This document shows positions 31,279-46,063 of a stretch of DNA of 64,000 nucleotides, one piece after another. Under the pieces are notes generated by a model. That model was given only the letters and a program-made list of their open reading frames with translations. It had not been told where the DNA came from and did no database searches. The stretch lies in NCBI GenBank assembly GCA_963758005.1, contig CAVWTR010000001.1, positions 7,737 to 71,736 of the forward strand, written 5' to 3'. The position numbers and the translations under genes are program-made. Position 1 is the stretch's first letter. Every line of letters starts with the position of its first letter. Source of the DNA: an uncultured Acidobacteriota bacterium (GTDB lineage Bacteria; Acidobacteriota; Terriglobia; Terriglobales; Acidobacteriaceae).

Positions 31279-34200
31279 TTATCTGTGCAACCACATGCGA
31301 AGCGCCGAAAGCAGTTGCTCGGTATTAACTGGTTTGGCCAAATACTCTGAAGCTCCCGCTTCCAGGCACTTTTCGCGATCGCCCTTCATCGCTTTCGCAG
31401 TTAGAGCAATAATCGGCAACCTTCGGAAGGACGGATTCTGCCGAATCACCTGCATGGTCGCATATCCATCCATCTCGGGCATCATGATGTCCATCAAAAC
31501 AATCGCCACATCCGGAGTTGACTCCAGTATGGAGATTGCTTCGCGGCCGGTTCCAGCCGTCAAGACGGTCATTCCGCGGCGCTCCAGAACGCTGCTGAGA
31601 GCGAAGATGTTGCGCATGTCGTCGTCCACGACCAGCACTTTCTTCGCTACCAGGGCCTCATCGGAGCGATGCAGTCGATCCAGCATCCTTTGTTTTTCCT
31701 GCGGCAGATCCGCCACTACCCGATGCAGGAAGAGTGCCGTCTCGTCGAGCAGGCGCTCCGGCGATTCCACGCCTTTCACGACCACGCTGCGGGCCAGCAT
31801 GTGCAGTCGCGCGTCCTCCTCCGGAGACAATTCTTTTCCCGTAAATACAACGACGGGAAGATCGTTCACCGCAGGGATATCGCGCATGCGTTCGAGGACG
31901 TCAAAGCCCGTCATGTCGGGTAATCGCAAGTCCAGCACGACGCAGTCGAACGTCTCGCGGGTCACCAGGTCGAGAGCTTCCGCGCCGCTGGAGACAACAA
32001 AGACGTCGATGTCGTCATAACCCAGCAGCTCGCGGATGCTCATTTGCTCCGCCGGATTGTCCTCGACAATCAGCAGCCGCTTGCGCCGAGGTGAGGCGTA
32101 GTCCTTGATGCGGCCCAGCGCAGAATCGAGATCCTCGGGGCTTGTCGGCTTGTTCACAAAAGCAAACGCGCCTCGAGCCAATCCGTGATGCCGGTCTTCG
32201 TCCAGAGTCAGCATTTGTACCGGAATGTGCCGGGTGGCCGGATCTTGTTTCAAGTGATTGAGTACCGTCCAACCCAGCATGTCAGGCAAGAACACGTCCA
32301 ACGAAACCGCCGTGGGATGGAACTCGCGAGCCAGCGCGAGAGCCTCCGCTCCTCGCAGCGCGACAAGAACTTTGAATCCCTTGTCGCGCGACAAATCGCA
32401 GAGCACGCGGGCATAATGCGGATCGTCCTCGACAATGAGCAGCACGGCATCGTCCGGCTGCAGATTGTCGCGGTCGTCCACAATCCGGTCGACTGGAAGT
32501 TCCGACACGACGATATTCGACAGTTGAAGAGGCGTGGTCGTCGCCGATGTGCGCCAGTCGGAAGTGGTCAGCTTCGACGCCGACGGTCCGACGTAGTTAA
32601 GCGGCAGATAAAGTATGAACGTGCTGCCTTGACCGGGCGTGCTGCGGAGCTGAATCTCGCCGCCCAAAAGGCTTGCAAGTTCACGGCTGATGGCCAGCCC
32701 CAGGCCCGTTCCGCCGTATTTGCGGCTGGTGCTGGCATCTGCCTGCTGGAAGGCCTCGAAGATGATGCGCTGCTTATCGAGAGCAATTCCGATTCCTGAA
32801 TCGGTGACCTCAAAGGCGACCACTGAAGCCCCACCGCTGAGAATGGGATGATCTTCGCTCCATCCCTTTGTGGCCACCGACACGGCAAGCCGGACCGACC
32901 CATGCTCGGTGAACTTGAACGCGTTCGACAACAGATTTTTCAGCACCTGTTGCAGACGCTTCGAGTCGGTTACCAGACTGCGGGTAAGTTGCGGATCGGT
33001 CTGTACCTCGAAAGCCAGCCTGCGATTCTCCGCCTCGTGCCGGAAAGGCCGGGCCACCATTTCGAGCAGGTTGGTAAAGAATACTTCCTGCGCCTCGACC
33101 GATACCGTTCCGGACTCGATCTTCGAGAGATCGAGAATGTCGCTGATCAGGTTCAGCAAGTCAGTGCCGGCACCGTGAATCGTTCGTGCAAACTCCACCT
33201 GCTTGGCCGTCAGATTGTGGTCAGGATTCTCGCTGAGCTGCTGGCCGAGCACAAGAATGCTGTTCAGCGGCGTTCGCAATTCGTGCGACATGTTGGCGAG
33301 GAATTCTGATTTGTATTTGGAAGTTAGTGCAAGTTCCTTTGCCTTCTCTTCCAGAGCGCGACGGGCTTGCTCAATTTCCTGGTTCTTGCGTTCTACTTCC
33401 ACGTTCTGCTCGGCAAGTTGCTGGGCTTTTTGTGCGAGCTGCTCGTTGGTCTGTTGCAGTTCTTTTTGCTGGGTTTGCAGTTCGGCGGCAAGTTGCTGAG
33501 ACTGTTTGAGAAGTCCTTCTGTCTGCATCGTCGCTTCAATACTGTTCAGCACGATGCCGATGCTGGCAGTGAGCTGCTCGAGGAATGCCAGGTGAGAAGC
33601 CGTGAATGCGTTCAAAGAGGCGAGTTCAATTACCGCTTTCACGCGATCTTCAAAAAGCACCGGGAGGACAATCACATTTCGCGGAACTGACTCAAATAAA
33701 CCGGAACGAATGGGAACTGTCTGCTCCGGCAGGTCTGAAATCAACATGCGGCGCTTTTCCGACGCAACCTGCCCTACCAGCCCTTCGCCGATTCGCAGCC
33801 GGCGCAGGTGTCCCTTTTCGCCGTCATCGGCAAATGCTGACAGCAGCACCATGCCCGCCGTTTCTTCGGTTTCCATCTGATAAATCACGCCCTGCTGTGC
33901 GTTCACCAGCGGAGCGAGTTCGGAAAGCAACATGCGACCTACGGTCGCCAGATCGCGCTGGCCCTGCAACATTCCGGTAAAGCGAGCCAGATTTGTTTTG
34001 AGCCAGTCTTGTTCCGTGTTGCGGTCCGTGGTGAGCCGAAGGTTGTCGATCATGGTGTTGAGGTTGTCCTTCAAGTCCGCAACCTCGCCGCTCGCCTCCA
34101 CCTGAATCGAGCGGGTCAGATCACCTTTCGTGACGGCGGTCGCAACCTCGGCAATGGCGCGCACTTGATTGGTCAAGTTGTCAGCCAACAGGTTGACATT

Positions 34201-37200
34201 GCCGGTTAGATCTTTCCACGTTCCGGCTGCGCCGGGAACGTTCGCCTGTCCACCCAGTCTGCCTTCGACGCCCACTTCGCGCGCGACGGTCGTGACCTGG
34301 TCGGCAAACGTTGCCAGCGTATTCGTCATGTTGTTGATGGTCTCGGCTAGTGCCGCGACTTCGCCCTTGGCATTCACCGTGAGCTTCTGGGTGAGGTCTC
34401 CGTTGGCAACAGCCGTCACGACCTTCACGATGCCGCGTACCTGCTCGGTGAGGTTGACTGCCATGACGTTGACGTTGTCGGTAAGATCCTTCCACGTTCC
34501 GGCCACGCCGGGCACCTGCGCCTGGCCACCCAGCTTGCCGTCAGTGCCGACTTCGCGCGCCACGCGCGTGACTTCAGCGGCGAACGCGTTCAACTGGTCC
34601 ACCATCGTATTGATAGTGTTCTTGAGTTCGAGAATTTCACCTTTTACGTCGACCGTGATTTTGCGCGACAAATCGCCGCGGGCCACAGCCGTTGTGACTT
34701 CGGCGATATTTCGCACCTGACCCGTTAAGTTGCCAGCCATCGCATTGACGGAGTCGGTGAGATCTTTCCAAGTGCCAGCGACTCCCGGGACGTTGGCCTG
34801 TCCGCCCAACCGGCCTTCGCTACCGACTTCGCGGGCCACACGCGTGACTTCGGCGGCGAATGATCGCAGCTGCTCGACCATCGTATTCAGCGTTTCTTTG
34901 AGCTGCAAAATTTCGCCGCGTACGTCGACCGTAATCTTCTTCGAAAGATCGCCGTTCGCGATTGCGGTTGCGACCTCGGCGATGTTTCGAACCTGGCCAG
35001 TGAGATTGCTGGCCATGAAGTTGACGTTGTCGGTGAGATCCTTCCACGTACCTGCAACGCCGGGCACTTGCGCTTGCCCTCCCAGCTTGCCGTCGGTGCC
35101 GACTTCGCGCGCGACGCGCGTTACTTCGCCGGCGAACGCATTGAGCTGGTCGACCATCGTATTGATGGTGTTCTTGAGCTCGAGAATTTCGCCCTTCACG
35201 TCGACCGTGATCTTGCGTGACAAATCGCCGCGCGCCACAGCCGTCGTGACTTCCGCGATGTTTCGCACTTGGCCGGTGAGGTTTCCGGCCATGGAGTTTA
35301 CGGAATCAGTGAGATCCTTCCACGTACCAGCCACACCCGGGACCTGAGCCTGACCGCCGAGTTTGCCTTCCGAACCGACTTCGCGGGCCACACGGGTGAC
35401 TTCGGCGGCGAACGCGTTCAGTTGGTCCACCATCGTATTGATGGTTTCCTTGAGTAGCAGAATCTCGCCGCTCACGTTGACCGTGATCTTCTTGGAAAGA
35501 TCGCCGCTGGCAATGGCCGTCGATACCTCGGCGATGTTACGCACCTGGCCAGTCAAGTTGCTGGCCATGGAATTCACCGAGTCAGTAAGGTCCTTCCACG
35601 TTCCGCCGACACCAGGTACGAGAGCTTGGCCGCCCAGCTTGCCGTCGGTGCCGACTTCGCGAGCCACGCGTGTAACTTCTGACGCGAATGATCGCAATTG
35701 GTCCACCATGGTGTTCATGGTGTCTTTCAGCTCAAGAATTTCACCTTTCACGTCGACTGTGATCTTGCGCGACAAATCGCCGCGCGCCACGGCCGTCGCG
35801 ACTTCCGCAATGTTTCGCACCTGACCAGTGAGGTTGTTGGCCATGAAGTTGACGTTGTCCGTGAGATCCTTCCACGTACCGGCCACTCCGGGCACCTGCG
35901 CCTGACCGCCCAGCTTGCCTTCCGTGCCTACCTCGCGAGCCACACGCGTTACTTCACCAGCGAATGCATTCAGCTGATCCACCATCGTATTAATGGTGTT
36001 CTTGAGTTCGAGAATTTCGCCTTTCACATCGACGGTGATCTTGCGCGACAAATCGCCGCGGGCCACGGCCGTTGTGACCTCTGCAATGTTTCGTACCTGG
36101 CCAGTCAAGTTACCGGCCATGGAGTTCACCGAGTCGGTGAGATCTTTCCAGGTTCCGGCGACGCCAGGGACGTTCGCCTGTCCGCCCAACCGGCCTTCGG
36201 TACCGACTTCGCGGGCCACGCGCGTCACTTCACCGGCGAAGCGGTTCAGCTGATCGACCATCGTGTTAAGAGTTTCTTTGAGCTGTAGAATCTCGCCGCG
36301 GACATCAACCGTGATTTTGCGCGACAAGTCGCCGCTGGCGATGGCCGTTGCAACTTCCGCGATGTTACGCACCTGGCCCGTCAAGTTGCTGGCCATGAAG
36401 TTCACGTTATCGGTAAGATCTTTCCACGTGCCACCGACTCCGGGCACTTGTGCCTGGCCGCCCAGCTTGCCTTCCGTGCCAACTTCGCGAGCTACGCGCG
36501 TAACTTCACCGGCAAACGCGTTCAGCTGATCGACCATCGTGTTGATGGTGTCTTTGAGTTCGAGAATTTCGCCTTTCACGTCGACCGTGATCTTGCGCGA
36601 CAAGTCGCCGCGGGCCACAGCCGTTGTAACCTCTGCGATGTTACGGACCTGAGCCGTGAGGTTGCCGGCCATGGCGTTCACGGAATCCGTTAAATCTTTC
36701 CAGGTGCCGGCGACGCCGGGCACAACCGCCTGGCCACCGAGCTTTCCGTCGGTACCGACTTCTCGAGCGACGCGCGTTACTTCCGATGCGAACGACCGCA
36801 ATTGATCGACCATCGTGTTGATGGCTTCTTTGAGCTGCAGAATCTCGCCACGCACATCAACGGTAATTTTGCGGGATAAGTCACCGCTGGCCACGGCTGT
36901 GGCCACTTCAGCAATGTTGCGCACCTGACCAGTCAGATTGCTGGCCATGAGGTTGACGTTGTCGGTGAGATCTTTCCACGTACCGGCCACGTCCGGCACT
37001 TGCGCCTGGCCGCCCAGTTTTCCTTCGGTTCCTACTTCGCGCGCGACGCGTGTTACTTCCGCGGTGAACACGCCGAGCTGCTGAATCATCGTATTGACGA
37101 GGTTTGCGGATCGCAGGAACTCGCCTTCCAGTGGGCGCCCATCCACATCGAGTCGGACGGTCTGCGTAAGGTCGCCTTGCGCGACAGCTGCGATGGCACG

Positions 37201-37626
37201 CGTAACTTCGGCCGTCGGCCGGAGCAAGTCTTCGACCAGCGTGTTGACGGAGACTTCCATTTCGCCCCAGGCGCCGCGCGACTCATGAAACCGGGTACGC
37301 TCGCGGGTCTTGCCCTGCTTGCCAACGACGTGGCCGACCCGCTTCAATTCCTGCGCCATGTGTTGATTGGCAGCGACGATTTCGTTAAAAGTGTCGGCAA
37401 CTTTTCCCGCCAGCCCAACCCAAGTCCCCGGAAGGCGCACGGTGAAGTCGCCGTCGCGCATGGTCTGCAGGCTGGTCAGGATAACGGTGAGGTCGAGCGA
37501 CCCATCCCCGGCTTTGGGTTTGCCGTTATTCTTGGCACCGTTCTTGGCGCCATTGCTCTTCGCAATGGAGGAAGGAAGGTTCTCGGTGCCGTCGGGCACG
37601 ATTTCGTTCAGCGTGGATCTTTTCAT
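31279..37626 (-). CDS. Soluble giant hybrid histidine kinase: poly-HAMP array (11 x 92 aa), GAF, HisKA, HATPase, 3 x REC
   Basis: Uninterrupted 2115-codon ORF with no TM segment. Eleven tandem units each contain [10 protein letters not shown]..[20 protein letters not shown]. A GAF-like block follows (VIYQMETEE...[16 protein letters not shown]...). H-box [17 protein letters not shown]-box [13 protein letters not shown]1 TDSGIGI, G2 [12 protein letters not shown]. Three receivers are present ([10 protein letters not shown].., [10 protein letters not shown].., [10 protein letters not shown]..). Confidence 0.93.
34033..37068 (-). repeat. Coding tandem repeat: 276-bp (92-aa) unit x11 inside the giant kinase
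   Basis: Units begin at residue 187 ([13 protein letters not shown]) and run head to tail to residue 1198. Units 1-9 are near-identical in protein, while units 10-11 are more diverged. Confidence 0.9.
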
Positions 37627-39608: not shown

Positions 39609-40748
39609 ATGAAGATGCCACGAACGTCATTCGCGGAGAATGTGCGCGGTTATGGCGTGGCCCTGCTGGCTGCGATCGCAGCTCTGCTCCTTCGCAGACT
39701 GTTGACCCCGGTGTTGGGAGCTCAGAACCCTTACCACACTGCGTGGGCCGCGGTGGTTTTCTCGGTGTGGTATTGCGGAGTGGGCCCGTCCATCCTCACC
39801 ATTCTGGTTGATCTCATCGGCATCTGGTACTGGTTCCTGCCGCCGACTGGCTCCTTTGCCCTTGCCAACCCAAGAGCGGACATCGCCGGAATGGTGGGCT
39901 TCGTAATCTTTTCCGGATGTATCGCTGTATTCGGAGAATCCACTCGCCGTTCTCTGGCAAGAAGCCGCTGGGCCGAAGATCAGCTGCGAGTTGCGCACTC
40001 CGGCCTGGAGCGCAAGGTTCAGGAGCGAACCACAGAATTGAGAATGGCCAACGAAAATCTGGAGGAACTGTCTCACCACCTGCAGCAACTTCGAGACGAG
40101 GAACGGAAACAGATTGCCCGCGAATTGCACGACAGCGTCGGACAGATGCTGGCAGCCTTGAGCATGAATATTGCAAAGGTGCAGTCTCAATCCGACAAGC
40201 TGGACTCAGCGGCGGCCCGCGCGGTCGCAGAAAACGCGGTCCTGGTTCAACAAATCAGCAAGGAGATTCGCACCATTTCGCATCTGCTGCATCCGCCTCT
40301 GCTCGACGTGGCCGGACTGGCATCGGCTGTCCGCTGGTATGCCGACGGTTTTTCGGAGCGAAGCAAGATCAATGTCGAGACTGAGATTCCGGAAGAGTTT
40401 CGCCGGCTTTCCGATGAGATGGAGATCGCAATTTTCCGCATGGTGCAGGAGTGTCTCACCAATATTCATCGTCACTCTGGCAGCGATACTGCGATCGTTT
40501 CGATTCGGGAGGAGGACCACAGCATTATTGTGGAGGTCAAAGACGCGGGCAAGGGCATCCCTCCGGAAAAACAGATGGAGCTGCGTTCCGATCGAACAGG
40601 CGTGGGTTTTCGCGGCATGCGAGCGCGATTGCGACAGTTTGGTGGAGAACTGGACATTCAATCGGACGGTGGTGGGACGTCTGTCACGGCCAAACTCCCT
40701 CTTCAGCCGACTTCGATATCCGTCGTCGATCGGGGAAACGCTTCGTGA
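39609..40748 (+). CDS. Membrane sensor histidine kinase (DUF4118-like TM bundle plus HisKA_3 plus HATPase)
   Basis: Four N-terminal hydrophobic helices. H-box RKQIARELHDSVGQ, N-box VQECLTNIHRHS, G1 KDAGKGI, G2 GVGFRGMRARL. Confidence 0.88.
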   Translation: MKMPRTSFAENVRGYGVALLAAIAALLLRRLLTPVLGAQNPYHTAWAAVVFSVWYCGVGPSILTILVDLIGIWYWFLPPTGSFALANPRADIAGMVGFVIFSGCIAVFGESTRRSLARSRWAEDQLRVAHSGLERKVQERTTELRMANENLEELSHHLQQLRDEERKQIARELHDSVGQMLAALSMNIAKVQSQSDKLDSAAARAVAENAVLVQQISKEIRTISHLLHPPLLDVAGLASAVRWYADGFSERSKINVETEIPEEFRRLSDEMEIAIFRMVQECLTNIHRHSGSDTAIVSIREEDHSIIVEVKDAGKGIPPEKQMELRSDRTGVGFRGMRARLRQFGGELDIQSDGGGTSVTAKLPLQPTSISVVDRGNAS

Positions 40749-41010: not shown

Positions 41011-41229
41011 ATGGCAGACGATATGGAAAAGAACCGACAGCAGGGTGGACAGACTGGTCAGCGCAACGATCAGACTGGACAACAGAACAACCAACCCGGA
41101 CAGCAGGGTCAAAACCGTCAGACTGGCCAAACTGGTCAGCAGAGCGGACAGCAGCCCGGACAGAAAAAGGGCGGTCAAGGTCAGAATGAAGAAGACGACA
41201 ATCTTGACAAGCAGCGCCGCGCCTCCTAG
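41011..41229 (+). CDS. Q/G-rich intrinsically disordered small protein (hydrophilin-like)
   Basis: AAAGGGAGG Shine-Dalgarno, then an ATG. The 72-aa product is dominated by GQ(T/Q)GQ repeats (GGQTGQRNDQTGQQNNQPGQQGQNRQTGQTGQQSGQQPGQ). A perfect terminator lies 27 nt downstream. Confidence 0.7.
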   Translation: MADDMEKNRQQGGQTGQRNDQTGQQNNQPGQQGQNRQTGQTGQQSGQQPGQKKGGQGQNEEDDNLDKQRRAS

Positions 41230-41255: not shown

Positions 41256-41290
41256 GAAGTCCCGGCCTCGCTGCCGGGACTTCTTTTTTC
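41256..41290 (+). terminator. Rho-independent terminator
   Basis: Perfect 11-bp stem gaagtcccggc / gccgggacttc with loop ctcgct, followed by tttttt. Confidence 0.9.
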
Positions 41291-41620
41291 TTTCGAAATA
41301 GAGTCAGGAACCACGGAGAATTTTCCGTTTACCCGTCATCCTTGCATTGTGCGAATTCTGGCGTGTCCGGATAAACAACGGGCATTCCATGAGTTAGCTC
41401 TTGACCCATCCTTGGAAGAGAACTTGCACTAGCTTCCCAAGGACGCAATGCGTCGCCGAGCCTGTGATGGCCAGATTCTTTCATGGGATAGGGCGGTGTC
41501 TACTTCCATCCGCAGCCAGCCGTGGCAACCGGACGATCAGAAACAGCATCTGAAACAGACCTTTCGCTGGAACAATCGTGAAAGCTGCGTGCTCATTCTT
41601 CGCCGCCGGATCGATGATCG

Positions 41621-43948
41621 ATGACCGATGCATCACAGATTGCTGAGGGAGGTCCATGGATGCGCTTGCTGAGTGTTCGGCTGATTGTGTCTCTGATCGT
41701 AGGCATAACGCTGGTGTCGCTGGCGTTCTCCTATTATCAGGTCGTGCAAGAGAAGCGCACACTCCGCGGCGATCTGGAGCGGCGGGCCGAGGTCCTCGGC
41801 GAGAGTCTGGCCGGCAATGTCGAGAAGATAGTGGGAACCGGCTCGAACCAGGCGCTGCAACGACTGGTGCAACGCTTTAGCAATCGGGAAAACTTGATTG
41901 GAGTTGCAGTCTACGACCGGAACGCTGACCTCGTAGCGATGACCCCGGAGCTAGCGAAAATGCTGACTGGGAGTCCGGCAGCGCTGACCCAGGCGCTTCG
42001 CGACAATCACAATGAGAGTTCTTTCGTTAAGTTCGGAAACGACCGCATACTGATTTTCGCCTTGCCCCTGCACCGCGACAGCGAGCTAGCGGGGGCGTTG
42101 GTGATTGTGCATGACGCGGACTACATCCAGGCACAGATGCTTCGGGTGTGGCGGGAAACATTTTTCCGGGTGCTGGTGCAGGTCTTTCTGGTGGTTTTTA
42201 TCACGCTCCTGATCGTACGCTCCAGCATCAGCGGGCCGATTGTGCGCGCCGCGCAATGGATGAGAGCCATGCGCACCGGCGGAATCGCCTCATCCCAGAA
42301 GATGCCGAACCTCGACATGTTCCGTCCGCTAGCCGACGAAGTTGCCACCATGGCTGCAAGCCTGAGCCTGGCACGCAATGCTGCCGAAAACGAGGCTCGT
42401 CTGCGGGAAGCCAGCGAGTCGATGTGGACCGCGGACCGGCTCTCCGTACACATCCAAAGCCGCCTCGCCGGTACGCGGCTCTTCGTCGTTTCGAATCGCG
42501 AACCTTACATTCACCAGCGAGATGGAAAGTCCTTGAACGTGATCGTACCCCCGAGCGGCTTGGTAACTGCTCTGGAACCTGTGCTCAACGCTTGCGATGG
42601 AACCTGGATCGCGCACGGTAGCGGCGATGCTGATCTGGAAACAGTTGATGCTCACGATCGCCTTCGTGTTCCGCCCGATGATCCTCGCTACACTTTGCGG
42701 CGCGTATGGCTAAACAAGCAGGAAGAGGAAGGCTACTACTACGGTTTTGCCAACGAAGGGCTGTGGCCTCTGTGCCATATCGCTCATACTCGACCCATCT
42801 TTCGCGCGTCCGACTGGCAGTCCTATCAGGAAGTCAACCGTAAGTTTACGGTGGCGCTGCTCGAGGAGATCGAAGATATACCCAGTCCGGTAATTCTGGT
42901 CCAGGACTATCACTTCGCTTTGTTGCCGCGGATGATTAAGGAGAAGAGGCCGGACGCGCGGGTGGCTATCTTCTGGCACATTCCATGGCCAAACCCCGAA
43001 GCCTTTGGAATCTGTCCCTGGCAGCGGCAGTTGGTAGACGGCCTGCTAGGGGCTGATCTTGTCGGTTTTCACGTACAGTCGCACTGCAACAACTTCCTGC
43101 AGACCGTCGACCGGGTTGTCGAATCGCGTGTGGATTGGGAGCACTTTTCCGTTCTGCGCAAGGAGCACCGCACCATCGTCCGCCCCTTCCCTATTAGCGT
43201 GGACCTGACCGACGATGAACCTGCGGGAGGCAGCGACAGCGAGTCCAGGTATCTCGAGCGAGCGTCTTTGACCCGCAGTATTGGCTCAGAGGCAACGTTC
43301 CTCGGGATCGGCGTCGATCGGGTTGACTACACAAAAGGAATTCTGGAGCGCTTCCTGGCGATCGAGCGCTTTCTGGAGAAATATCCAGCCTATCAGGGAA
43401 AATTCACCTTCGTTCAGATTGGGGCTCCCAGCCGGACGCACCTGAAGCGCTATCACGACCTGCTGGCCGAGGTGGAAGCAGAGGCCGACCGCATCAACTG
43501 GCGCTTTCAATCAGACCGATGGAAGCCCATCGCGTTTCTGAAACGGCAGCATAGCCACAAGGAGATCACGCCGTATTATCGCGCAGCCGATCTCTGCATG
43601 GTCACGTCGCTGCACGATGGGATGAACCTGGTGGCCAAGGAATTTCTGGCGGCGCGCCAGGACGAACGTGGAGTGCTGATCCTGAGCCAGTTCACCGGCG
43701 CCGCGCGCGAACTGCGCGATGCCCTGCTGGTGAATCCCTACGACATCGATCAGTCGGCGGAAGCCATCCGGGTTGCACTCGAGATGGAACCTGAAGATAA
43801 GCAGCTGCGGATGCACCGAATGCGCCGAACGATAAAAGAACACAACATTTACCGCTGGGCCAGCAATCTAATAAGTGAACTCTGTGAGGTCCGATTGGAC
43901 GCCACGGAAGAAGAACCCGCCAGGCTCCACGCGAGCGCGAGCATCTAG
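41621..43948 (+). CDS. otsA: Trehalose-6-phosphate synthase (GT20) fused to an N-terminal TM-loop-TM-HAMP-like sensor module
   Basis: GT20 motifs are present: [57 protein letters not shown]. The N-terminal ~280 aa contain TM1 [24 protein letters not shown], a loop of ~140 aa, TM2 [19 protein letters not shown], then [18 protein letters not shown]...[15 protein letters not shown]. Confidence 0.88.
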
Positions 43949-43995: not shown

Positions 43996-44676
43996 ATGAT
44001 GAGCATAGCCGACACAACTCAACCACGCACTCAGGTGAAGCCATTCTTTTTCAACACTTCGACTCACCTGCTGCGCATCACGAAGTACAAGGCCAATACT
44101 CTGTCGGAACTTCTCGATGGCTTGCGCGAGTGTCCCGAAGAATCGATCTTTCAGCACACCTTCCGAACCTTGCAGGATCATCATTTTCTTTCCACTGGTT
44201 TTTCCAACGACTTCGCGCACTGGACGCTGACGGCCTGCAACGAACCGAAACTGGCTGAAGCGCTGGCAGGCGTCGATGTGCGCGAGTTCACTTCGGTGGC
44301 CGAGTTGCGCGCCCGATTCGTTGAGATCGTGGAAAGATATTTGCAGGACAATCCGGAATCCAGAACCAGCGTCGCGGATGAGGCGTTTTATTTTTGCGCG
44401 GCCGACATTATCGTCATGCCCACGAGCTCTCAGGCGCACACGCTGCACGAATTCACAGAAGGCATCAGAAACGTCAGCGTGCACTCGATTCATCATCATT
44501 TTATCGAGGCCCGGCTGCGGATCAAGCTCATGTCCAATGATTTCTCCCTGTGGCTGCACGAGGATGCTGGCCTGACTGACACTGCGCGCAACTTGAACCG
44601 GATCGATATTTACACCTCGACTCTTGAAAACGTACGGCAACAGATCGTGCGGATCATCGAAAGAGCGTTGACCTAG
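43996..44676 (+). CDS. DUF5752-family protein (trehalose-cluster associated)
   Basis: The 226-aa product reads FFFNTSTHLLRITKYKANTLSELLDGLRECPEESIFQHTF...HHHFIEARL... Family recognition is from memory of DUF5752 proteins that sit next to GT20/GT4 trehalose genes. Confidence 0.65.
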   Translation: MMSIADTTQPRTQVKPFFFNTSTHLLRITKYKANTLSELLDGLRECPEESIFQHTFRTLQDHHFLSTGFSNDFAHWTLTACNEPKLAEALAGVDVREFTSVAELRARFVEIVERYLQDNPESRTSVADEAFYFCAADIIVMPTSSQAHTLHEFTEGIRNVSVHSIHHHFIEARLRIKLMSNDFSLWLHEDAGLTDTARNLNRIDIYTSTLENVRQQIVRIIERALT

Positions 44677-44722: not shown

Positions 44723-46063
44723 ATGCATCCAGTGAAATCTGAATCCGTAGCCACCTCAACAGTGTCGGAGACAACCTCCGCTCAACCTGTACCCTTGCGA
44801 ACGGAGCGGCGGAAGTCGCCTCGAACCTGGGAGAAACCGCCCGCACCGGTTCCGCCGCCACACTTAGACGACTACCGGAGCGTCGTGGGTTCGGCTGCGA
44901 TTGACGAACTTCACTTCCTTGCCCGCAACCTCAAGGGCAAGACGCTCAAGATGGTTAACTCCACGGCGGTCGGCGGAGGGGTCGCCGAGATCCTGAACCG
45001 CCTGGTGCCGCTGCTCGGAGAATTGGAAGTGGTCACCCACTGGGATGTCATCACCGGAGGCAACGATTTCTTCGAGGTGACGAAGGCATTTCACAATGCC
45101 CTGCAGGGCAGTACGTACGAACTAACGCGCCAGGCGCAGGAAATCTTCCTGACCTGTAACGAGCAAAATCGGCAGCGCATGCAATTTAACGAGGACATTG
45201 TGGTAATTCACGATCCGCAGCCCGCCGCGCTCATTCGTGCCCGGCAGGACTCGCCGGCGCACTGGATTTGGCGATGCCACATCGATCTCTCGAATCCTAA
45301 TCCGCAGGTGTGGCAGTTTCTACGACCGTTCGTAGAGCAATATGACGCGGCAATTTTCTCGTCGCAATCATTTACGCGTCAGCTGTCGATTCCTCAGTAC
45401 TTGTTTTATCCATGCATTGACCCGTTATCCGAGAAGAACAAAACGCTCGACGACAGCTTTGTTCAAAAGGTTTGCGACGAGTTTGGAATCGACCGATCCC
45501 GGCCCATCGTCACCCAAGTCTCGCGCTTCGATCGCTTCAAAGATCCGGTCGGCGTGGTGCAGGCTTTCAAACTTGCCAGCAAATACGTGGATTGTCAATT
45601 GGTACTGGCGGGCGGGGGAGCCAGCGATGATCCCGAGGGTGCGACTGTTCTGGCCGAGGTAAAAGAAGCTGCGGGGGACGATCCCAACATCATCATTCTC
45701 GACCTTCCACCGTGGTGCGCACTGGAGATCAATGCCCTGCAACAGGCTTCGACTCTGGTGATTCAGAAATCGATCCGGGAAGGCTTCGGACTGACCGTAA
45801 CCGAGGCGCTGTGGAAGGGCAAACCTACGATCGCCGGCGCCGTAGGTGGAATTCCCAATCAGGTAATCGATAAGCTCACCGGCGTACTCGTGCACACGGT
45901 GGAAGGCTGCGCCTACCAGATCCGTTATCTCTTGACGCATCCCGAATTCGCCGCTCAGCTGGGCCGTAACGGACGTGAGCACGTGAAGGAAAACTTTCTC
46001 ATGACCACTAACGTGCGGCGATGGCTGTTGCTGATGCAGATTTTACTGGGCAAAACGGGTTGA
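44723..46063 (+). CDS. treT: GT4 glycosyltransferase, TreT-like trehalose synthase
   Basis: N-terminal motif VNSTAVGGGVAEILNRLVPLL...FFEVTKAFHNALQG is typical of TreT-type enzymes. The GT4 C-terminal E-x7-E motif is present (REGFGLTVTEALWKGKP). Confidence 0.75.
   Translation: MHPVKSESVATSTVSETTSAQPVPLRTERRKSPRTWEKPPAPVPPPHLDDYRSVVGSAAIDELHFLARNLKGKTLKMVNSTAVGGGVAEILNRLVPLLGELEVVTHWDVITGGNDFFEVTKAFHNALQGSTYELTRQAQEIFLTCNEQNRQRMQFNEDIVVIHDPQPAALIRARQDSPAHWIWRCHIDLSNPNPQVWQFLRPFVEQYDAAIFSSQSFTRQLSIPQYLFYPCIDPLSEKNKTLDDSFVQKVCDEFGIDRSRPIVTQVSRFDRFKDPVGVVQAFKLASKYVDCQLVLAGGGASDDPEGATVLAEVKEAAGDDPNIIILDLPPWCALEINALQQASTLVIQKSIREGFGLTVTEALWKGKPTIAGAVGGIPNQVIDKLTGVLVHTVEGCAYQIRYLLTHPEFAAQLGRNGREHVKENFLMTTNVRRWLLLMQILLGKTG

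Follow-up and report, generated by a model that had tools for sequence, protein, structure and literature searches.

A trehalose-6-phosphate synthase fused to a predicted WalK-like sensor module in Acidobacteriota

In a 64,000-nucleotide stretch of DNA from an uncultured Acidobacteriota bacterium (assembly GCA_963758005.1, contig CAVWTR010000001.1; the whole stretch is called the window below), we analysed a gene, here named sensor-TPS, in which a predicted membrane-spanning sensor module precedes a trehalose-6-phosphate synthase (TPS) of glycosyltransferase family GT20. We propose that its product is a transmembrane receptor-enzyme in one polypeptide, with a WalK-type input module placed on, and regulating, a catalytically competent OtsA-type synthase; we put the probability of this reading at about 0.55. 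The domain order, the intact enzyme motifs, the conservation of the fusion, purifying selection and the transcription of both halves were established by the observations reported here. The open reading frame (ORF) runs unbroken from 41621 to 43948 (+) and would encode 775 amino acids if read from the ATG at 41621. Residue numbers refer to the 762-residue form that we favour, unless the 775-residue form is named (offset 13), and feature coordinates are collected in Table 1.

The N-terminal 272 residues are, as far as sequence and structure models can tell, an input module of the sensor-kinase type. Kyte-Doolittle hydropathy of the 775-residue form revealed exactly two segments of transmembrane (TM) grade in the whole protein, both within its first 205 residues (16-38 and 180-202 of that form), and the AlphaFold2 (AF2) model places helices over both. 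R2 and R7 precede TM1 on the cytoplasmic side. The initial annotation had read a TM-loop-TM topology from this region; hydropathy and the predicted helices support both membrane passes clearly, and the loop of about 140 residues between them is a folded Cache/PDC domain rather than a plain loop according to profile, AlphaFold and Foldseek comparisons. A profile built from 25 orthologues matched the extracellular domain of WalK in the PDB (5is1, E = 5.5e-6; 4ywz and 7dud also matched, to 1.2e-4). The AF2 model of the N-terminal part had a mean predicted local distance difference test (pLDDT) score of 78, with values of 80-91 over the periplasmic domain. In this model TM1 continues as a long helix that enters the domain, a sheet of PDC type comes next, and a helix returns through TM2; the long N-terminal helix and the antiparallel sheet flanked by helices, set between two TM segments, are the features of a Cache fold. 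The best Foldseek match in the PDB was a full-length WalK model, the WalK-YycH model 9a5d, aligned over 256 columns with E = 3e-9. Foldseek TM-scores were 0.74-0.77 for WalK extracellular domains, 0.75 for DcuS and 0.69 for CitA, and Cache domains of chemoreceptors matched as well. The NCBIfam model of WalK aligned from its TM1 to its HAMP (model positions 14-258) with residues 22-260 of the 775-residue form (E = 5e-9).

Family models of the Cache domain gave weaker matches. Pfam sCache_3_2 scored 19.2 bits in the window protein, below its threshold of 28.4; among orthologues its best E value was 4.7e-6, and some of them carry a precomputed PF17203 match. Cache_WalK matched 3 of the 68 diverse family members that we aligned (26-79% identity). 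R76 and E77 are invariant in the periplasmic domain, H151 and D152 are nearly so, and its loop regions differ in length between orthologues. We note that in one member, P0125 (913 residues, from a Logan assembly), the periplasmic Cache domain is present twice in tandem ahead of TM2, which makes it a double-Cache-like variant.

Directly after TM2, which ends near residue 189, sequence and model point to a probable, divergent HAMP domain. The predicted structure consists of a helix (193-206), a loop (207-221, pLDDT below 50) and a long helix (222-270). This is the layout of HAMP, in which a connector of roughly 14 residues separates two helices; the connector here exceeds that of Af1503 by a few residues and is also longer than in the Pfam model. 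Across the 68 diverse members P193 is invariant and G207 nearly invariant, and these two residues occupy the positions of the HAMP proline and of the glycine between helix 1 and the connector. Pfam HAMP matched this segment below threshold (E ≤ 1) in 5 of 25 close members and in 13 of the 68 diverse ones. When a profile of 40 diverse members (A6) was compared with 177,635 PDB sequences, Af1503 HAMP entries ranked first and aligned end to end, and 9 of the 14 matches at E ≤ 10 were HAMP proteins. A narrow profile of 15 close orthologues (A2) found no HAMP match in the PDB. We also aligned the segment by hhalign with the 23 HAMP units of a large kinase encoded in the window; the positive control failed, as bona fide unit types did not align with each other because diversity among the kinase units was too low. 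The HAMP-like segment that had been proposed for this position thus stands in its placement, its proline and glycine, and its helix-connector-helix form, and it falls short in that the Pfam HAMP match stays below threshold.

The second HAMP-like helix continues into a helical linker, whose end lies four residues ahead of strand beta-1 in the GT20 N-domain and which carries the most conserved motif of the family, AAExEARLR...WT.(D/E)RL. Among the 68 members W256 is invariant, and A242, E245, A246, L248, R249, T257, R260 and L261 are nearly so. In this diverse set, conservation across the whole module peaks at P193, R205, G207, P223, E227, A238, A242, E245, A246, L248, R249, W256, T257, R260 and L261, every one of them in the HAMP-like segment or the linker.

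The remainder of the protein appears to be a complete OtsA-type synthase with intact motifs, and we predict that it is catalytically competent. Pfam PF00982 scored 397.7 bits (cut-off 32.5, E = 9e-119) over residues 286-754 of the 775-residue form, covering positions 2-471 of the 473 in the model, and it placed the start of the domain at about 42476, where the initial annotation had put it. That annotation also held that an enzyme takes the place of a kinase core, and our comparisons agree: GT20 lies where DHp and HATPase would sit behind a WalK-like N-terminal module, and Pfam found neither HisKA nor HATPase_c in the protein. Sensor-TPS is therefore not a sensor histidine kinase, though it shares the input half of one. 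The best PDB match was OtsA of Mycolicibacterium thermoresistibile (5jij, E = 1.3e-82), aligned over the full length, as were fungal Tps1 and Escherichia coli OtsA (E values from 1e-82 to 6e-64). Compared with 5jij and 6jbi, the active-site motifs SNR, (S/G)GLV, LWPLxH, QDYH, HIPWP, VDRx and SQFTGAA are kept; we take these conserved GT20 motifs to serve substrate binding and catalysis, after the E. coli OtsA structures. The only difference among them is a serine in place of the first glycine of the GGL loop, where P0125 has GG. Scores stayed under the NCBIfam equivalog cut-offs for OtsA (TIGR02400, 429.8 against 564.85; PRK14501, 483.3 against 634; PRK10117, 263.2 against 759), and the model of GgpS scored 308 bits, well under the 430-483 bits of the NCBIfam OtsA and TPS-TPP (trehalose-6-phosphate phosphatase) models. 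A role as OtsA would fit the position of otsB, which encodes an LDYDGTL phosphatase and lies directly 3' of sensor-TPS in 49 of the 72 relatives with enough downstream sequence, the set to which all neighbourhood counts below refer.

The fusion is widely conserved. Scanning one genome per GTDB species, we found relatives in at least 548 species representatives, and our statements on lineage and ORF structure cover the best 80 of these loci. In 77 of the 80, sensor and GT20 form a single ORF of 759-977 residues, and almost all 80 are labelled Acidobacteriota (Terriglobales, Candidatus Sulfotelmatobacter and Acidoferrum). An exhaustive profile search returned 1,698 clusters at 50% identity with E ≤ 1e-3. 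Three loci in metagenome-assembled genomes labelled Dormiibacterota, Verrucomicrobiia and Aquilonibacter (L008, L025 and L055) are 65-77% identical to the sensor module of the window; as the surrounding synteny matches that of Acidobacteriota loci, these labels are probably binning or labelling errors, not spread to other phyla. Public records call the orthologues 'trehalose-6-phosphate synthase', in a few JGI entries with the addition 'uncharacterized membrane protein affecting hemolysin expression', and we found no description of a sensor-fused TPS in open-access full-text literature. The additional part has been seen by annotation pipelines, yet left uninterpreted. At one locus (L037, 8001-10931) a 977-residue ORF runs from sensor-TPS into the C-terminal two thirds of OtsB; this may be a triple fusion (sensor-TPS-TPP) or a mistake in the assembly. 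Short, N-terminal-only database entries resembled stand-alone sensor proteins, a reading that we rejected: they are either fragments from contig ends or long-read assemblies with frameshifts and junk tails.

Every segment of the gene, the N-terminal module included, is under purifying selection. In pairwise comparisons with nine orthologues, the ratio of nonsynonymous to synonymous substitution rates (dN/dS) was 0.11-0.18 for the N-terminal module and 0.04-0.06 for GT20. Within the module TM1 had the lowest value in most comparisons (0.02-0.13), and the HAMP-like segment and linker gave 0.06-0.18. Both halves are also transcribed: in two soil or rhizosphere metatranscriptomes, contigs cover 41346-41919 (5' leader and sensor) and the GT20 part at a similar, low depth. 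One metatranscriptome contig links the 3' end of the TPS with a DUF5752 gene and a TreT-type gene.

Sequence comparison indicates that translation most likely starts at ATG 41660 and not at ATG 41621, because the MRLLS alignment, upstream stops, a Shine-Dalgarno motif and the closest orthologue all favour the downstream codon. The aligned MRLLS start is ATG in 78 of the 80 related loci and GTG in the other 2; an in-frame stop often lies 1-10 codons 5' of it, and a GGAG, GAGG or AGGA motif is found no more than 18 nt from it in 59 of the 80. The closest orthologue, L006, lacks the 17-nt stretch that contains ATG 41621. The 120 full-length orthologues measure 760-795 residues, mostly 760-763, and those that we read begin with MRLLS; public collections contain both the 775- and the 762-residue forms. 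The start at 41621 that had been assumed for the gene hence lies 39 nt too far upstream, and 41621-41659 is probably untranslated, though the frame is open. The revision removes 13 residues only and leaves the architecture unaffected. A start close to the GT20 domain, which would have undone the fusion, finds no support in the orthologues at the 80 loci, which favour the long form.

We propose the following mechanism. Sensor-TPS would reside in the inner membrane as a parallel homodimer, in the manner of Cache/HAMP receptors. A periplasmic or membrane cue would alter the packing of the TM and HAMP-like helices, and the linker helix would relay this change to strand beta-1, shifting the position or the opening of the two GT-B domains. 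Synthesis of trehalose-6-phosphate would then rise or fall within seconds, independently of transcription, and OtsB would convert the product to trehalose; its gene comes next in most relatives and, if present in this genome, would lie elsewhere. The initial annotation had inferred direct, transcription-independent control by an envelope or osmotic signal; by analogy with receptor cyclases and kinases such control of an enzyme by a signal is plausible, and the same analogy suggests that an outside signal may switch the synthase without gene regulation. We infer dimerization, regulation rather than anchoring, the direction of regulation and the nature of the cue. For the cue, our leading guess is water or osmotic stress, or the state of the envelope, on account of the trehalose, TreT and hydrophilin-like context of the gene. 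Taken further, sensor-TPS could be the first of a class, transmembrane receptor-glycosyltransferases, in which Cache/HAMP signalling, known until now to drive signalling enzymes only, gates a metabolic GT-B enzyme. Envelope state (water potential, osmolality or a periplasmic ligand) would then set the rate of trehalose synthesis within seconds in much of the soil Acidobacteriota; we advance this wider claim tentatively, at somewhat less than even odds.

Several points weigh against a receptor-enzyme. Pfam HAMP (PF00672) gave no match at E ≤ 0.1 in the window protein, and no family member reached its gathering score of 25 bits; the best, P0125, scored 19.7 bits (E = 0.0011). The Af1503 HAMP match of profile A6 to the PDB had an E value of only 0.087-0.9. 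An AlphaFold model of the full-length protein, built from 48 orthologues, was of low confidence (pLDDT 59.8, predicted template modelling score 0.39) and broke the helix at 251-257; we left it out of the mechanistic statements and of the fold search. To our knowledge no GT-B enzyme is driven through an N-terminal coiled coil, and the OtsA enzymes that have been solved are soluble. We know of no established small-molecule ligand of WalK, so the cue is not to be inferred from homology. The 64-kb window, with a gap of only 47 nt between sensor-TPS and the DUF5752 gene, contains no otsB (best tblastn E = 0.024). Finally, mycobacterial OtsA is reported to be allosterically regulated by the metabolites 2-oxoglutarate and 2-phosphoglycerate (PMC6879718).

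The module may instead be a tether that holds the synthase at the inner membrane face, with an activity independent of any periplasmic signal; local protection of the membrane, handover of the product to an exporter or a glycolipid pathway, or assembly with partners would be its purpose. The two TM segments are certain and would serve such a role, the HAMP match is only sub-threshold, and WalK-type extracellular domains are known mainly as sites of protein interaction, as in the WalK-YycH model that was the top fold match. A single TM helix would suffice for anchoring, however, whereas here a periplasmic domain of 140 residues, a second TM segment and about 80 residues of helix-connector-helix are all under purifying selection. 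Across distant members no part is more conserved than the cytoplasmic juxtamembrane segment, and the concentration of the most conserved residues in the HAMP-like segment and linker argues for a transmission element rather than a passive tether. We consider a tether the main rival of the receptor-enzyme reading, unlikely but worth keeping in view.

Another possibility, compatible with a receptor-enzyme and in fact a sub-case of it, is that the Cache domain has a periplasmic sugar (trehalose, maltose or glucose, for instance) as its ligand and acts as a feedback or nutrient sensor, tuning synthesis to supply and not to stress. Its fold class includes the small-molecule-binding Cache/PDC sensors DcuS, CitA, PctC and Tlp3, the polar residues R76 and E77 (invariant) and H151 and D152 (nearly invariant) could suit such a site, and the locus holds a second trehalose route, TreT, that uses free glucose. 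We found no sequence match to any sugar-binding Cache, though; WalK-type domains are the closest, and the loop regions vary in length among orthologues. A sugar sensor is accordingly improbable in our view. It is more improbable still that GT20 is a non-catalytic regulatory or ligand-binding module, like class II plant TPS, in a protein that serves as a signalling scaffold. The OtsA equivalog score under its cut-off (TIGR02400) and the serine in the GGL loop would fit such a loss, but the other active-site motifs align with solved, active OtsA over the full length, dN/dS of this domain is only 0.04-0.06, most relatives have otsB next to the gene on its 3' side, and members such as P0125 retain GG at the loop; on sequence grounds we regard this alternative as largely excluded. 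Lastly, that a small membrane sensor gene and otsA were wrongly read as one ORF, or that translation starts near GT20, is hardly credible and is refuted at the sequence level, for the many N-terminal-only database 'proteins' of 270-450 residues, some of them on long contigs, are the fragments and frameshifted assemblies described above, whereas the single ORF recurs at the related loci and in 120 full-length orthologues, RNA contigs cover both parts, no internal start is conserved and the linker is the most conserved segment.

Comparison with known systems places the two halves in different families. With WalK (YycG/VicK), sensor-TPS shares the order and spacing of TM1, a single-Cache/PDC domain, TM2 and a segment that is HAMP in WalK and probably HAMP here. 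It differs in having a GT-B glycosyltransferase and no PAS, DHp or HATPase_c domain, in the divergence of the probable HAMP and its longer connector, and in its host, as WalK belongs to Firmicutes and sensor-TPS to Acidobacteriota; identity is only 15-17%. With OtsA (E. coli 1gz5 and 1uqt; 5jij) it shares the full-length GT20 alignment, the substrate-binding motifs and, in most relatives, an otsB neighbour. Known OtsA enzymes, in contrast, are cytosolic, have no fused receptor and begin at the strand that here follows residue 272. The known control of E. coli OtsA consists of osmotic and RpoS-dependent induction and of stimulation by potassium glutamate. Similar in its logic is GgpS of Synechocystis, a GT20 enzyme that salt frees post-translationally from inhibitory binding of nucleic acid (PMC6753628). 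GgpS is a GT20 compatible-solute synthase under transcription-independent control of the kind proposed here, but its mechanism is electrostatic and cytoplasmic and involves no sensor domain.

Receptor-type enzymes such as sensor kinases, HAMP adenylate cyclases, membrane diguanylate cyclases and PP2C phosphatases have the same plan of an extracytoplasmic sensor, TM segments, helical transmission and a catalytic domain. Their outputs make or remove a messenger or a phosphoryl signal, whereas here the output is a metabolic enzyme that makes the precursor of a protective solute. S-helix linkers, defined by Anantharaman et al. in 2006 as parallel coiled coils of about 40 residues with a polar central heptad that lead from sensor to catalytic domain, join sensors to kinases, cNMP cyclases, PP2C, NtrC-type ATPases and diguanylate cyclases (PMC1592074); the word glycosyltransferase is absent from that survey (PMC1592074). 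The resemblance of our linker to an S-helix concerns position, predicted helix and strong conservation only. In ProP, BetP and OpuA, sensing and response are united in one membrane protein, and solute accumulates immediately without transcription. These are transporters, however, which import the solute and sense through cytoplasmic or lipid-facing elements, with no Cache/HAMP input and no biosynthesis, and no homology is expected.

The receptor-enzyme principle is already known, and what would be new here is a receptor-enzyme with a metabolic output. If the module does regulate the enzyme, Cache/HAMP-type transmembrane signalling would drive a biosynthetic glycosyltransferase in addition to enzymes that make messengers, and sensor-TPS would allow the control of a GT-B fold by a helical linker to be studied in a simple system that is read out as enzyme activity. 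Acidobacteriota rank with the most abundant bacteria in soil, where trehalose serves as a main protectant in cycles of drying and rewetting. A fast, transcription-independent drought response would then be present across much of the soil Acidobacteriota, in at least 548 species. The current labels of these proteins as 'trehalose-6-phosphate synthase' leave about 270 sensor residues unmentioned.

Table 1. Coordinates of sensor-TPS, its predicted segments and neighbouring features in the window.
Feature	Coordinates	Strand	Basis
Sensor-TPS gene, revised start	41660-43948	+	762 residues plus stop; orthologues start MRLLS
Shine-Dalgarno-like GAGGGAGG	41645-41652	+	7 nt before ATG 41660
TM1, residues ~3-25	41666-41734	+	Hydropathy peak 2.37; helix in AF2 model
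Periplasmic single-Cache/PDC domain, WalK-like, residues ~26-166	41735-42157	+	Profile and fold matches
TM2, residues ~167-189	42158-42226	+	Hydropathy peak 2.73; AF2 helix 154-191
HAMP-like helix-connector-helix (probable), residues ~190-240	42227-42379	+	AF2, conservation, sub-threshold HAMP matches
Helical linker, residues ~241-272	42380-42475	+	Helix to 270 in N-terminal model; joins strand beta-1 of GT20
GT20 OtsA-type trehalose-6-phosphate synthase domain	42476-43882	+	PF00982, NCBIfam, PDB alignment
DUF5752 gene	43996-44676	+	PF19027, E = 3.7e-60; 47 nt 3' of sensor-TPS
TreT-type trehalose synthase gene, second trehalose route	44723-46063	+	TreT_GT1, E = 8e-57, plus Glycos_transf_1
Histidine kinase DUF4118-HisKA_3-HATPase_c, KdpD-like membrane domain	39609-40748	+	Pfam; upstream of sensor-TPS
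Small hydrophilic Gln/Gly-rich protein, 72 residues (MADDMEKNRQQGGQTGQRNDQTGQQNNQPGQQ...)	41011-41229	+	Strong Shine-Dalgarno sequence, own terminator
Intrinsic-terminator-like hairpin and T-run	41256-41293	+	11-bp stem, 8 GC pairs; divides small gene from sensor-TPS unit

Downstream of sensor-TPS, the DUF5752 gene is probably part of the same transcript, and 46 nt separate it from the TreT gene. The NCBIfam TreT model scored 384.7 bits on the latter, under its cut-off of 775. Read from ATG 44723, the TreT ORF begins with a Pro/Ser/Thr-rich extension of about 55 residues; the JGI call of 392 residues starts 54 codons further in. DUF5752 and TreT follow sensor-TPS in 37 of the 72 relatives. Where otsB comes first, 28 of the 49 loci continue with DUF5752-TreT; in most relatives otsB lies between sensor-TPS and DUF5752 (for example L004, 10324-11157). 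The order seen in the window, without otsB, recurs in 9 of the 72, and 14 have neither otsB nor DUF5752-TreT. In the 72 loci DUF5752 and TreT never occur one without the other, and the DUF5752 gene always immediately precedes that of TreT; DUF5752 may be an accessory or regulatory subunit of TreT. We found no mention of DUF5752 in open-access full-text literature.

Upstream, the histidine kinase with a KdpD-like membrane domain is kept directly upstream at 60% identity or more in 18 of the 72 relatives, and no response regulator gene adjoins it in the window. This conservation hints at an additional, transcriptional layer of control. The small, very hydrophilic Gln/Gly-rich protein encoded between this kinase and sensor-TPS has no Pfam match and looks like a hydrophilin or general-stress type. 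Its RNA contig ends at 41237, and in one soil metatranscriptome that contig had a depth of 470, compared with 4-16 for sensor-TPS. At L006, the locus of the closest orthologue, the protein is 75% conserved, and JGI records include it as a gene call.

In the 5' leader of sensor-TPS, a stretch of about 90 nt (about 41515-41600, +) shares more than 90% identity with L006, in contrast to the diverged intergenic DNA on its flanks; we did not find it upstream of any of the other 78 loci, and it could be a promoter, operator or leader element. We considered a riboswitch in the 5' region of about 370 nt and rejected it: Rfam gave no match at gathering score in the window, and a local match was at chance level. 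The kinase whose HAMP units served in the hhalign comparison is a hybrid histidine kinase of 2,115 residues at 31279-37626 (-). It carries a poly-HAMP array of 23 alternating units as counted by motif (12 GDL[ST] and 11 LGGQA), in which Pfam recognized HAMP 11 times and HAMP_2 11 times, followed by GAF, HisKA, HATPase_c and three receiver domains.

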